From positions 35,315 to 99,314 of IMG/VR virus record IMGVR_UViG_3300043579_000184: DNA of 64,000 nt; one strand, 5' to 3'. The notes beneath the pieces are model-generated. The model made no database searches and was not told where the DNA came from. It worked only from the letters and a program-made list of their open reading frames with translations. This stretch comes from a virus. A program made the position numbers and the translations under genes. This document shows, piece after piece, positions 30,014 to 44,515 of the stretch (within the stretch, counting starts at the first letter, position 1; every line of letters starts with the position of its first letter).

Positions 30014-30353
30014 GAAGAACCGCGAGCTGCTGAAGTGTGACGAGGTCGAGCTGCCGCGCGTAGCGCGCGAGCTACAGCGGCTCCGGGTGGCGCTCATCAC
30101 CCTCAACGAGCTGATCACCAACGTCTCCGACCCCACGGCCAAGCAGGAGATCAGCCTGCTCTCGAAGATGCTGACCGGACGGCTGGAGTCGGGCGAAGGC
30201 GAAGCCGAGGAGGCGCTGGAGGTGGACGCGGCCAAGGCGCGGCTGGCCACACAGGGCATCGACCCGGCCTCGGCCGACAACATGGCGCGCGGCCTCCGGG
30301 CCCTGCAGGCGGTGATGCTCAACCGTGGAACCCGAAGCCCCGATCCGTCCTAG
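29913..30353 (+). CDS. putative terminase small subunit
   Basis: Helical 146 aa protein directly upstream of TerL; positional inference only. Confidence 0.35.
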   Translation: MERPTATPTTPEDRPEVIVAAEAELERVKIAILEKNRELLKCDEVELPRVARELQRLRVALITLNELITNVSDPTAKQEISLLSKMLTGRLESGEGEAEEALEVDAAKARLATQGIDPASADNMARGLRALQAVMLNRGTRSPDPS

Positions 30354-31209
30354 CGCCGTCGCCGAGGCGGGCGCGTTCCGGCAGGAGCTGGCCGAGAATT
30401 TCTTCGCCTACGACGAGATCCGCACCATGCCTGCGGCGGATCAGGAGGCGCTGTTCCAGTTGCTGGCGCGGATTCAGGAGGGCGACACCAGCCTCCTCCG
30501 GGACATCTACACGCTGGTCTACGACGAAGTGCCGGTGGACATGGAGCAGTTCGTCCTCGGCCACCGCTTCCTGAACCTGCGCCACCGCATCAATCAGGAG
30601 AAGCTGGACATCCTGATTCAGTTCAGTCACCCGTCGGTCCGCAAGCTGTGGTGCGCGGCGGGGTCGGGCGGCGGCAAGAGCTTCATGGTGTCGGTGGTGC
30701 AGGCGTGGATGGTCTACCAGCTCCTGTGCCTGAAGCGGCCGGACCTGTTCTACATGCTGGGCCCGGGCTCCAAGATCGCCACCGTCAACCTGAGCGTGGG
30801 CAAGGACCAAGCGAAGGACGTGGTCTTCGGCGAGTTCGTCGGCCGCATCAAGGCGTGCCGCTGGTTTATCGGCAAGTTCGAGCCGCAGACCGGCCGGGTG
30901 CTCTTCCCCAAGAACGTCTTCGCCCTGTCGGGGGGCTCGGCGGCGACCAGCTACTACGGCTACCACACGATCATGGGCTCGCTCGACGAGGCGAGCTTCA
31001 TGATCGACCGGCAGGATCGCTCCGTGGCGGAGGAGTTGACCGAGGCGCTGGTCAAGTCGCTTTCGACCCGCTTCCCGAACGCCTACAAGCTGATGGTCAT
31101 CAGCACCCTGCGCTCGGACGATGATTTCCTCTACACCAACATCCAGCGGATCCGCGAGGAAGGCACCGAGGTGCTGACCCGGCACGACCCCTACGCCCCG
31201 CCGAGCTAG
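30325..31209 (+). CDS. terL: terminase large subunit, N-terminal ATPase part
   Basis: AGSGGGKS Walker A, NLSVGKDQA, IMGSLDEAS Walker B, VIST coupling motif; ends about 30 aa later. Confidence 0.85.
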   Translation: MEPEAPIRPSAVAEAGAFRQELAENFFAYDEIRTMPAADQEALFQLLARIQEGDTSLLRDIYTLVYDEVPVDMEQFVLGHRFLNLRHRINQEKLDILIQFSHPSVRKLWCAAGSGGGKSFMVSVVQAWMVYQLLCLKRPDLFYMLGPGSKIATVNLSVGKDQAKDVVFGEFVGRIKACRWFIGKFEPQTGRVLFPKNVFALSGGSAATSYYGYHTIMGSLDEASFMIDRQDRSVAEELTEALVKSLSTRFPNAYKLMVISTLRSDDDFLYTNIQRIREEGTEVLTRHDPYAPPS

Positions 31210-31250
31210 CTGTTTGTAGTTGGCGTGTGGATCGTGCTGTACGAGGCGCG

Positions 31251-32204
31251 ATGCCGGTCCTAGTCTCCAACTCGAACGGCGAAGACAGTTCCCCCGCGCA
31301 CCTGCGGGAGTTCAACCACTGTCACAACCCGACCGGCCCGGGGGGCGGGGAGTTCTGCTCGGCCCCGGATGCCGGGAGCGGCGGGGGCAGGGCGGGCAAG
31401 GGGTCGGCGGTCGCGCTGATGCAGCAGGCGCTGATCGGGGTGAAGGAGAACCCCCCGCGCCACCGGGTGCACCTGCCGTACGCCCTCGACCCGGGCATGA
31501 ACGCCCGCATGCAGGCGCACAGCGACGACCCGAAGGTGCAGTTCGCGTACATGCAGAAAAACTACCCGCGCGTGGTGCGGGCGGCCGAGGCGCTGGTCGC
31601 GAGTGTGGCCCCAGCGCACGCGGAGCTGCAACGGGGGCTGACACAGGTGGCGCAGCGGCTCGGGTTTCAGATGCACCACAACCCCGAGGACGAGGCGGCG
31701 CTCGCCGACGACAACGACTACGTGTTTATCGGACCGCTCAAGTCCGTGTCGCGCGTGACGACCAAGTCCGCGAAGAAGGGCGGCGATGTCGGGGAGGTGC
31801 GGGACATTCTGCGCGGCACGGTGGCCATGCAGGATCTGAACGACTTCCCGGCGACGTTGCACCGCCTCTCCGAGATCGGGGAGATCCTGCACGTCGATGA
31901 CCGGATGAGCAAGCCCACCCCGGGGGGCTACCGGGACTATCAGGTCATCCTCAAGCTGAAGACCTCCGGGCAACTGGTCGAGATGCTGATCCTGCCCAAG
32001 CCGATGCTCGCCGCGAAAAAGCACGGGCACGCCCCCTACGAGGAGGAACGGGCCCTCCCCACCGGGCACCCGCGTAAGGCCCAACTGAACCAGTTCATGC
32101 ACGACCTGTATAACGGAGCATGGATGCGATCACGTGGTACGCGGCAGGCCCTCGCCGTGCTGGGGTCGCTGGCGCTGGCGCTGGCTCCGGTGGTCCACAA
32201 ATGA
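31251..32204 (+). CDS. leader-family protein 1 with RelA/SpoT-like nucleotidyltransferase domain
   Basis: Leader HLREFNHCHNPTGPGGGEFC; KSVSRVTTK, VRDILRG, GGYRDYQV, VEM motifs. Confidence 0.7.
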   Translation: MPVLVSNSNGEDSSPAHLREFNHCHNPTGPGGGEFCSAPDAGSGGGRAGKGSAVALMQQALIGVKENPPRHRVHLPYALDPGMNARMQAHSDDPKVQFAYMQKNYPRVVRAAEALVASVAPAHAELQRGLTQVAQRLGFQMHHNPEDEAALADDNDYVFIGPLKSVSRVTTKSAKKGGDVGEVRDILRGTVAMQDLNDFPATLHRLSEIGEILHVDDRMSKPTPGGYRDYQVILKLKTSGQLVEMLILPKPMLAAKKHGHAPYEEERALPTGHPRKAQLNQFMHDLYNGAWMRSRGTRQALAVLGSLALALAPVVHK

Positions 32205-32425
32205 CGACGCGCTTTTTCTCGGATGAAGGGGACATCCTCCGGGCGCGGGCCGCAGGCCGGGACGCCCCGCTCGACAAGTACTACGTCACGCACGGGTGGG
32301 TACCGCACGGGCTGAGGGTGGGAGACATCGAGTTCCCCTCGGTGCTCGACGCGGAGACGGCGGCCCGGAAGATCCGGGCCATGGGGGTCTCGGCGACGGC
32401 GGCCGCCAAGGCGGTGCAGGGATGA
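32201..32425 (+). CDS. small protein translationally coupled to leader protein 1
   Basis: ATGA overlaps at both ends. Confidence 0.55.
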   Translation: MTTRFFSDEGDILRARAAGRDAPLDKYYVTHGWVPHGLRVGDIEFPSVLDAETAARKIRAMGVSATAAAKAVQG

Positions 32426-43380: not shown

Positions 43381-43405
43381 CATCTGGGTCCACCTGCGGT
43401 ATTAT
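43377..43405 (+). promoter_or_regulatory. conserved early-type promoter driving a non-coding stretch
   Basis: TTGACA-tctgg-GTCCACCTGCGG-TATTAT. Confidence 0.8.
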
Positions 43406-43413
43406 GAGCATGT

Positions 43414-43613
43414 AAGTCAGCATTGCAAGTGGGAGCGGTCGAAGGCCGCAGCCGGGGCCGAAAGCCTCCGGGGTGATACCCGGTAACGGTGTGGAAGGAA
43501 CAGCCCACCTGACTTCATGGGGAGGCTCCGGAGCCTCCCACCCTCCGGTGCGGCGAGGGACGCCAGTCGAGACCGCACCCCTCTGGGCGGCGAGGACAGC
43601 CGCCCGTTTCTCT
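43414..43613 (+). ncRNA. candidate structured non-coding RNA (~200 nt)
   Basis: Nested helices AAGTCAG/CTGACTT and GTGGG/CCCAC, three further hairpins, terminator-like end GGGCGGC/GCCGCCC-GTTTCTCT. Confidence 0.5.
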
Positions 43614-43663
43614 GTACAGACCGCCCGGTTTGTACTCGGTGCTCGGTTTGTAGTCCCTGTACA

Positions 43664-44515
43664 AACATCGAGATCCACAAGACCATCGACGGCTCGGAGC
43701 TGGCTGTCGTCGCCGCGACGTGGGAGCTGAACCCGCGCATCAGCTTCCACTCGCTGTCGGCCGAGCTACGGGGCAACCCGCAGAAATTCTGGCGCAACTA
43801 CGGCAGCCGGGTCGGCGGCGGCGCGGCAAACCTCGCCATCAAGGATCCGCAGGAAGTCCTCAACCATATCAATCTGGCCCGGAACGACCCGTGGAACTAC
43901 ACGCACAACCGGTTCTTCGAGCATGTGCGCGGCCGCCCGGACCGCCGCTACTTCATGCACTTCGACCTCGCCAAGAACAAGGACACCGCTGGGGTCGCCT
44001 GTGTGCACCGCGAGCCGACCGGGGTCATCGTCGTGGACTTCATGCACGGGCACCGGGCCAAGCCCGGCGAGAACATCGTCTTCGCTGAGCTGCGGCAGTA
44101 TCTCTACGACCTGCACGCGCGGGGCTTCACCATCGTCATGGCGACCTATGACCAGTGGCAGAGCGAGGAGACCCGACAGATCCTCGAAGGGCAGGGGTTT
44201 GCCACCGACCAGTGCTCAGCGGACCGGACCAGCGCGCCCTATGACACCTGTATCGAGATGCTGCTGACCGACCGGCTGGACTACTACAACGAGCCGCAGT
44301 TCATCCGCGAGATGCAGCAGCTCCGGACCGACGGGGTCAAGTATGACCACCCGAAGCACGGGACCAAAGACGTGTCGGACGCCGTCGCCTGTGCCACGTT
44401 CACCGCCATCAATGACTCGCTGGAGAACCCCGAGGAAGCCCCCGGTGTGATGGTGGTGCACCGGGCGAAGGAGTCGAAGCGCTGGAGTCAGCGCTACGAG
44501 AAGTCAGCGTGGTAA
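43664..44515 (+). CDS. terL: terminase large subunit, C-terminal part (lid/linker + RNase H-like nuclease); start uncertain (frame open from ATG 43517)
   Basis: ATWELNP...FWRNYG, MHFDLA, TYDQWQS, KDVSDAVA; phage-like codon usage begins only at about 43664. Confidence 0.8.
   Translation, partial: NIEIHKTIDGSELAVVAATWELNPRISFHSLSAELRGNPQKFWRNYGSRVGGGAANLAIKDPQEVLNHINLARNDPWNYTHNRFFEHVRGRPDRRYFMHFDLAKNKDTAGVACVHREPTGVIVVDFMHGHRAKPGENIVFAELRQYLYDLHARGFTIVMATYDQWQSEETRQILEGQGFATDQCSADRTSAPYDTCIEMLLTDRLDYYNEPQFIREMQQLRTDGVKYDHPKHGTKDVSDAVACATFTAINDSLENPEEAPGVMVVHRAKESKRWSQRYEKSAW

Follow-up and report, generated by a model that had tools for sequence, protein, structure and literature searches.

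A terminase large subunit probably assembled from two separately encoded chains in a clade of soil and sediment phages

We analyzed a 64,000-nucleotide stretch of viral DNA (hereafter, the window), which spans positions 35,315 to 99,314 of the IMG/VR record IMGVR_UViG_3300043579_000184, and found that the gene for the terminase large subunit (TerL) is divided there between two open reading frames (ORFs), TerL-N and TerL-C, that lie 12,457 nt apart on either side of a cargo array. The record is 129,940 bp long and is rated complete by CheckV, and the GC content of the window is ~67%. We consider it probable that the phage depends on an obligate two-chain TerL, which would have arisen when the gene underwent fission at a permissive loop of the ATPase domain. 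An original prediction from the letters of the window had already placed terL in two ORFs about 12.4 kb apart around a cargo array. It had read Walker A, Walker B, and the coupling motif at 30325-31209, with a stop about 30 residues later, and a continuation at about 43664, right before the portal gene. The ORF translations bear out this layout. TerL-N carries Walker A (AAGSGGGKS, residues 111-119), Walker B (LDEAS, 220-224), and the coupling motif (ISTLRS, 259-264), and its stop codon follows 30 residues past the coupling motif. TerL-C lies in an ORF at 43517-44515 (protein P0002) that encodes ATWELNP and FWRNYG, followed by the nuclease motifs HFDLA, YDQWQS, and KDVSDA. Its conservation begins at an ATC codon at 43667 (IEIHK), and the portal gene starts 4 nt past its end.

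Neither half is named by the common sequence families. Pfam and NCBIfam scans of both halves returned no terminase family, PHROGs gave a weak match for TerL-N only, and profile searches of PDB sequences with the halves produced no genuine match. Because these sequence searches found nothing real, the assignment to TerL rests on structure comparison. The model of TerL-N has a predicted local distance difference test (pLDDT) score of 87, and its residues 67-280 superimpose on residues 107-305 of T4 gp17 (Z 16.8, root-mean-square deviation 2.6 over 185 residues); the fold also matches the ATPase domains of HK97 and P74-26 TerL (Z 16.8-16.9, gp17 included). The C-half model matches the nuclease of G20c TerL (255-442; Z 17.4) and, with its residues 53-255, RB49 gp17 359-564. 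Further matches are the nucleases of HK97, T4, and D6E and that of herpesvirus pUL15 (4iox, Z 14.6). The pair thus comprises an ASCE ATPase with its three motifs and a C-terminal RNase H-like nuclease with its acidic residues, the two domains lying on separate polypeptides. A megablast search of the 15-kb region against phage genomes and a profile scan of representative prokaryote genomes with the N-half gave no match. The N-halves P0063-P0154 all carry the precomputed Pfam label PF27249 (MJ0330_N), which seems to be a newly defined family that is not named as a terminase; the Pfam scan of P0001 was blank.

To place the two halves relative to each other, single-chain relatives are most informative. 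In L005, a 597-residue single-chain TerL from another viral contig, residues 18-244 align to P0001 66-267 (E 3e-26) and residues 299-549 align to P0002 62-306 (E 9e-26). Terminases of Streptomyces phages, which are single genes in ~130-kb phages, match both halves in order at ~30% identity. The unsplit relative P0173 matches the genome at TerL-N and TerL-C only, and searches of the 130-kb genome with P0001, P0002, P0173, and the Pfam models Terminase_6N and TerL_ATPase found no second TerL. On the strength of the P0173, Streptomyces-phage, and L005 matches, the halves are colinear, non-overlapping parts of one family with no intact terL elsewhere, which answers two objections that the original prediction had raised against itself, namely an intact copy somewhere else in the genome and an origin of the halves from different TerL families.

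The third objection, a misassembly, is excluded because independent contigs share the layout and span both junctions. A 22-kb IMG/VR contig from another metagenome (IMGVR_UViG_3300011441_000037), 92-98% identical, has the same arrangement. Contigs from two other sediment studies span 30714-31465 and 30489-31835, that is, from the N-half into the next gene, with no differences, and contigs from these studies also span 43201-43723, from the leader into the C-half. The N-half sequence is present in soil and sediment runs from ~20 studies, none of the listed ones being recorded as RNA.

Comparison of the models with gp17 locates the cut inside the ATPase domain, ~55 residues before the boundary between ATPase and nuclease. 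Because the N-half ends at the equivalent of gp17 305 and the nuclease begins at C-half residue ~50, equivalent to gp17 ~359, about 55 residues of the ATPase domain fall on the C-chain. The length of the solved gp17 ATPase-domain constructs (357-360 residues) is consistent with this boundary. The stretch of ~50 residues at the start of TerL-C corresponds to the last beta-strand and the lid helices of the ATPase domain. Folded alone, TerL-C has a pLDDT of ~50 over these first ~50 residues and of ~90 over the remainder.

When TerL-N and TerL-C were co-folded, as the original prediction had proposed, the interaction prediction score from aligned errors (ipSAE) was 0.66 in three runs, versus 0.01 for the best of three controls; this mark is reached by 58 of 80 solved complexes and by 2 of 110 mismatched pairs. 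At least 86% of contacts recur between the runs, with a partner pLDDT of 75 or more. The predicted interface pairs C-half residues 8-14 with the N-half strand that enters the P-loop (residues 105-112). The C-terminal helix and tail of the N-half (261-292) contact C-half residues 1-25 and 40-48, with the tail (279-292) touching residues 1-5. The sheet of ASCE ATPases has the strand order 5-1-4-3-2, and we take the C-half strand beside the P-loop strand to be strand 5 of this sheet. The C-chain is therefore predicted to supply the ATPase core strand that adjoins the P-loop strand, besides the lid. The earlier view that the segment after the coupling motif contributes to the lid thus holds for the lid helices, which are on the C-chain, and is refined in that a beta-strand of the core sheet is cut off as well.

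The split is not peculiar to this genome, and the comparison of related genomes that the original prediction had called for showed it to recur with a variable gap (Table 1). The protein collection holds 92 N-only relatives, nearly all of 290-310 residues, which end after ISTLRSxDDFLYxxIERIKEEGVxV with a variable tail of 0-40 residues, and 58 C-only relatives, nearly all of ~283 residues, most of which begin 0-13 residues before E-I-x-K/R-S-x-DGSE-x-AV-x-AATWELNP. Residues G113, G115, G117, K118, D221, E222, and S260 of TerL-N are invariant across 58 relatives; TerL-C has invariant D98 and D160 and nearly invariant D233 and D236. Catalytic residues of both halves are thus kept, or nearly so, in relatives down to ~40% identity. 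At the DNA level, the C-half starts with GTG in five relatives, with TTG in L119, and with ATG in L040. An in-frame TGA lies directly 5′ of the TTG in L119, and an in-frame TAG, brought into frame by a 4-nt indel, lies four codons 5′ of the start in L008. A Shine-Dalgarno sequence, GGAGGAG, stands ahead of the GTG in L012. In L017, AAGGTGAG stands ahead of the ATG, which overlaps the N-half stop by 11 nt; in L014, the N-half stop overlaps the start of the next gene. Each piece therefore has translation signals of its own in the relatives, the window itself having ATC. Because the halves have their own starts and stops and keep their catalytic residues, we conclude from these comparisons that they are separately translated genes under purifying selection.

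A search for the family across 1.84 billion representative proteins returned 4,414 matches; the best 150 of these include ~46 that begin at the same break, 70 fused forms, and 33 ambiguous ones. All 23 members of the window's clade are split in a tree of 115 sequences (Shimodaira-Hasegawa-like approximate likelihood ratio test [SH-aLRT] support, 99), and the split or fused state switches at least 4 and up to 11 times family-wide. A single origin of the split is therefore not upheld, and because some of the 4-11 changes are possibly gene-calling or indel artifacts, we make no claim about the direction of change. A word-limited search for longer proteins returned as fused forms only proteins that are 32-33% identical to the N-half. 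In the fused P0173, the break site is occupied by a 35-residue low-complexity loop. In a separate low-GC lineage (P0170, P0172, P0177, and P0181-P0183; L017 5623-7275), the C-half is followed by a C-terminal region of ~290 residues with no family match, and a close relative there, P0178 (840 residues), has the C-half fused to the N-half.

Table 1. Features around the divided terL gene of the window, and lengths of the gap between N-half stop and C-half start in the window and its relatives (aa, amino acids; nt, nucleotides; HTH, helix-turn-helix)
Feature	Position or gap length	Strand	Description
Sigma-70 region-4/HTH protein	29279-30013	+	Upstream neighbor of TerL-N, kept in relatives
146-aa ORF overlapping TerL-N start	within 29279..30353	+	Upstream neighbor of TerL-N, kept in relatives
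TerL-N (P0001), 294 aa	30325..31209	+	ASCE ATPase core, one helix, 14-aa tail (DPYAPPS), stop TAG
9-mer GTTTGTAGT	31212..31220	+	3 nt past TerL-N stop
Cargo array, nine leader genes and small ORFs	31251..43229	+	Common N-terminal leader LxE-x-N-x-CHNP-x-G-x-GGQFC
Promoter, structured RNA, terminator	43377..43612	+	TTGACA-17-TATTAT at 43377-43405; ~200-nt RNA
AT-rich control region	43613..43666	+	TGTACA, two copies of CGGTTTGTA, palindrome GTTTGTA-N7-TACAAAC
TerL-C, ~282 aa	43667..44515	+	ATPase-domain end (~50 residues), then RNase H-like nuclease
Portal protein, 674 aa	44520..46544	+	phrog_10963, E 8e-17
Gap, L017 (distant lineage, 39% GC)	-11 nt		Shine-Dalgarno and ATG
Gap, L117	229 nt		
Gap, L018	263 nt		One 56-aa ORF between
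Gap, L118	2.2 kb		
Gap, L119	4.6 kb		
Gap, 95.5-kb ENA contig	6.4 kb		
Gap, 98% relative (IMGVR_UViG_3300011441_000037)	11.2 kb		
Gap, JAWVHA010000434.1	12.0 kb		
Gap, window	12,457 nt		
Gap, two further IMG/VR contigs	~16.0 kb		

The gap of the window contains 20-odd genes, three consensus promoters, and one terminator. The nine leader genes that the original prediction had counted are present, and the graded series of gap sizes supports its proposal that the cargo array accumulated inside terL. Among the encoded families in the window, Zeta toxin and topoisomerase IB are clear, while the RelA/SpoT-like and SAM-lyase-like assignments are weak. In the window's clade, genes with a common N-terminal motif occur in every gap that was read, and the gap genes there include Zeta toxin, ART, an Acb1-like 2′,5′ RNA ligase family protein, Tad6, a SAM-lyase-like protein, topoisomerase IB, and methyltransferases. 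Pfam scans of 12 gap proteins found no mobile endonuclease gene, and no integrase or recombinase was found among the 12 either. About 1.1 kb of the array (36064-37155) is absent from the 92-98% identical contig IMGVR_UViG_3300011441_000037, and gap content therefore differs even between near-identical phages. Identity to the same contig is also lower in the array (92-94%) than in the flanks (97-98%), which suggests fast cassette turnover. One more leader gene follows the portal gene (46544-47353), and the leader fronts unrelated bodies; in relatives, other bodies stand behind the same leader, and L118 has a different head of the PNSNGAPEPDN type. The portal gene after TerL-C is a synteny kept in relatives.

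The consensus promoters of the window follow the pattern TTGACA-N4-GNCCACCTGCGG-TATNAT in seven copies, at 1659, 23292, 26037, 38520, 39172, and 43377 on the plus strand and at 60980 on the minus strand; those at 38520 and 39172 lie inside the array. The spacer core CCCACCTGCGG of this extended promoter is conserved as well as both hexamers, and no copy is expected by chance. Downstream of the copy at 43377, a perfect promoter of the sigma-70 type, the region up to 43612 contains no ORF with coding-type codon usage, its RNA has a fold z-score of -2.3, and it ends with a terminator-like hairpin (43584-43606) and a T-run. A small non-coding RNA is the probable product of this region, which separates the array from TerL-C just ahead of the late head operon. 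For the 250 nt that precede TerL-C, a role as the 3′ portion of a trans-splicing ribozyme was also considered and rejected: Rfam is blank, conservation with L008 and L016 is patchy, and a small RNA running from promoter to terminator is the better reading. A working terminator would leave TerL-C and the portal gene in need of a promoter of their own, probably a phage-specific one.

The palindrome GTTTGTA-N7-TACAAAC ends 1 nt before the TerL-C start, and a palindrome of the TTTGTAG...CTACAAA type stands ahead of the C-half in relatives as distant as 50% identity (L119, L040, L011, and L009). The 9-mer GTTTGTAGT occurs twice in the 130-kb genome, where 0.08 copies per strand are expected, the other copy lying at 43646, 13 nt before the ATC. 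L015 has a related GTTTGTG after its N-half stop, and looser copies (TTTGTAG and TTTGTAA) precede the starts of two other late genes (37155 and 49185) by 13-15 nt. From these sequence patterns, GTTTGTAGT and the palindrome may form a common control element, a putative operator or late promoter. As an excision or splice site, GTTTGTAGT was rejected, since the stop codon would stay.

Several observations weigh against a simple two-gene TerL. The conserved start position of TerL-C reads ATC, a poor initiator, in both the window and its 98% relative, and no Shine-Dalgarno sequence precedes ATC 43667. The sole canonical in-frame start is ATG 43517, to which the open frame extends, 50 codons 5′ and in sequence that looks non-coding. 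The 50 codons from this ATG have ~68% GC at third codon positions (GC3), versus 87% for the whole ORF, and are probably non-coding. With this codon usage, and with the frame not conserved (it is interrupted by the TAG in L008), ATG 43517 was judged unlikely to be the true start. ATC 43667 is then either a rare non-canonical initiation codon or marks some other start mechanism. In addition, the 9-mer GTTTGTAGT is unique to the gap borders and is unaccounted for by simple fission. Finally, the co-fold score may stem from the likeness of the pair to single-chain TerL structures that are already solved, so that the co-fold shows a fit of the pieces and not their binding.

The rival explanations differ in the level at which the two halves would be brought together. 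The original prediction had left the choice between two chains in trans and a joining of the RNA. Of these, two chains are favored by the independent starts and stops, the variable spacing, and the co-fold, and RNA joining is disfavored; we regard trans-splicing, a huge intron, or another ligation, as in herpesvirus UL15 or intron-split terL, as very unlikely. Such joining would be compatible with the non-canonical ATC at the head of TerL-C, with the confinement of GTTTGTAGT to the gap borders, where the N-half copy could pair with the TACAAAC before the C-half, and with the fact that GTG, TTG, ATG, and ATC would all encode hydrophobic residues as internal codons. Against it, Rfam searches of the window, of both gap borders, and of L017 and L018 returned neither introns nor ribozymes at gathering or permissive thresholds, in agreement with the earlier remark that group I and II intron hallmarks are missing. 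The overlap of the N-half stop with the next start (L014) or with the C-half start (L017) leaves no room for intron sequence, and the stops directly 5′ of the C-half start in L008 and L119 also argue against joining. The C-halves begin with the canonical GTG, TTG, and ATG rather than with GTC or CTG, which are preferred at ~90% GC3, and the N-half tails vary in length and sequence. The 20-odd genes, three promoters, and terminator of the gap speak against a spliced transcript as well. Four runs, two of which are labelled RNA-Seq with short contigs and are possibly DNA, contain no contig that joins 31.2 kb to 43.66 kb. Joints listed in them, such as 32769-44870 and 33546-42935, were rejected as repeat or other-organism artifacts, their sides being 20-22 nt in repeated leader sequence.

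The missing joint also counts against programmed excision of the 12.4-kb array to restore a contiguous or adjacent terL, as in the skin or nifD elements. A 9-bp direct repeat at both gap borders and the topoisomerase IB encoded in the gap, a relative of tyrosine recombinases, would suit such an event. Recombination between the 9-bp repeats would keep the TAG, however, so that the frames would not be fused; the topoisomerase IB carries the cargo leader and is absent from relatives' gaps, and the scanned gap proteins include no integrase or recombinase. We therefore hold excision to be highly improbable. At the protein level, ligation by a split intein or similar, as in AceL-TerL and GOS-TerL, is an explanation to which we give almost no credence, even though atypically split inteins are known from TerL (PMC2677866). 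Clade relatives do carry ordinary inteins elsewhere, in the P-loop (P0155 and P0084) and in the nuclease motif (P0031). At the break there is no room for one: many N-halves end right after EEGVRVL, most C-halves begin with M-E-I, and 0-27 extra residues remain in total, where atypical split inteins need >120 residues (PMC2677866). The junction is neither followed by a Cys, Ser, or Thr nucleophile nor preceded by HN, and Pfam found no Hint domain in either half, so that the earlier statement that split-intein ends are lacking is upheld. The P-loop intein GSGK|ALPL...THN|SF of P0155 and P0084 begins with Ala rather than with Cys or Ser, and that of P0031 contains an HNH domain (KKG|CFVGE...VHN|SKDVSDA). 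A last possibility is that the ATPase and the nuclease stand alone and meet only on the portal or the DNA, or that TerL-C is poorly made or not made at all because of the ATC. ATPase-only packaging enzymes exist, phi29 gp16 being among the structural matches, and the ATC does occupy the start position in the window. The N-half lacks a core-sheet strand, however, and the first 50 residues of the C-half are predicted to be disordered alone, which argues for obligate pairing. Because the phage with the ATC occurs in sediment and soil runs of ~20 studies and independent contigs cover the site, the ATC genotype is viable. We find this explanation improbable.

We propose that an old gene fission gave the clade an obligate two-chain TerL. 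TerL-N would provide most of the ASCE ATPase core, and TerL-C, translated separately, would add the core beta-strand that TerL-N lacks, together with the lid helices and the entire nuclease. The chains would most likely assemble by fragment complementation: the first strands of TerL-C would dock on TerL-N, next to its strand that enters the P-loop and against its C-terminal helix and tail. The cut falls where single-chain relatives have a long loop of variable sequence or length. In more distant lineages the two genes overlap or lie 0.2 kb apart, and in the window's clade the gap has come to host a fast-changing array of leader-bearing cargo genes that spans 2 to 16 kb. We infer both the physical assembly of the chains and a regulation of the C-chain that is separate from TerL-N and shared with the late head operon. 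A further reading, which we offer as doubtful, is that the fission is functional and acts as a two-key switch, so that an active, DNA-cutting terminase would form only when both expression programs are on. The ATPase chain would then be made in a unit behind a host-type promoter, together with a phage sigma-like factor, and the C-chain, which completes the ATPase and carries the nuclease, would be made from the first gene of the late head operon, behind the terminator and the palindrome that the clade conserves. If this were true, the split motor might offer Avs-type host sensors of terminase a different target, and the protected gap would be an exchange site for virion-delivered cargo genes.

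TerL is a hallmark of tailed phages that is used for detection, phylogeny, and assessment of genome completeness, and it is a model for viral packaging motors. Here, a whole clade from soil and sediment, with genomes of up to ~115-130 kb, keeps a TerL that is cut through the ATPase core sheet. Because Pfam and NCBIfam name neither half and PHROGs is weak for TerL-N, pipelines that expect TerL as one gene may miss it. A natural fragment-complementation motor of this kind would help to ask how ATP hydrolysis is coupled to the nuclease through the lid and the last strand of the core. For genome evolution, the locus presents an essential gene that stably frames a cargo region of high variability.

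In full-text searches of the literature, we came across no paper on a TerL that consists of two unspliced chains, and the arrangement is best seen next to other divided genes. The T4 enzyme gp39/gp60 is encoded by a gene in pieces. For Aeromonas phage Aeh1, NrdA-a and NrdA-b are given as unspliced genes in pieces (Friedrich et al. 2007, as cited in PMC2677866). As in these T4-like cases, an essential phage enzyme would here be made as two separately translated chains, cut in a permissive region, that reassemble without splicing. The T4-like genes in pieces hold a single homing-endonuclease gene in the gap, whereas none was found among the scanned gap genes here; in addition, the enzyme here is TerL, the cut passes through the ATPase core sheet, and the gap holds 2-16 kb of cargo across the clade. 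Intron-split terL genes are known in Staphylococcus Twort-like phages and in crAss-like phages. In Jug phages, terL is split by group I introns, as confirmed by metatranscriptomes (PMC12880540). There, too, the gene appears as several ORFs (two or three), but the pieces are co-transcribed and spliced, whereas in the window no intron model matches, the gap is coding and has promoters, and the pieces have their own starts and stops. The GOS and AceL TerL proteins are likewise encoded as two polypeptides in environmental phages and are ligated by an atypical split intein with an IntC of 122 residues (PMC2677866); in contrast, the junction here leaves 0-27 extra residues and shows no intein motifs. 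Herpesvirus pUL15 is encoded by two exons around other genes, which the spliceosome joins into one chain (PMC3079670). It resembles our case in that the ATPase motifs and the nuclease lie on two blocks kilobases apart with other genes between, and it differs in that bacteria offer no host spliceosome route and that our evidence points to two chains. In phiHau3-type terminases, coding gaps of 7-10 nt are skipped in cis by translational bypassing (PMC10732093). The interrupted yet functional actinophage terminase gene of phiHau3 is thus a parallel to the gene described here, whose gap of 12.4 kb is beyond the reach of bypassing.

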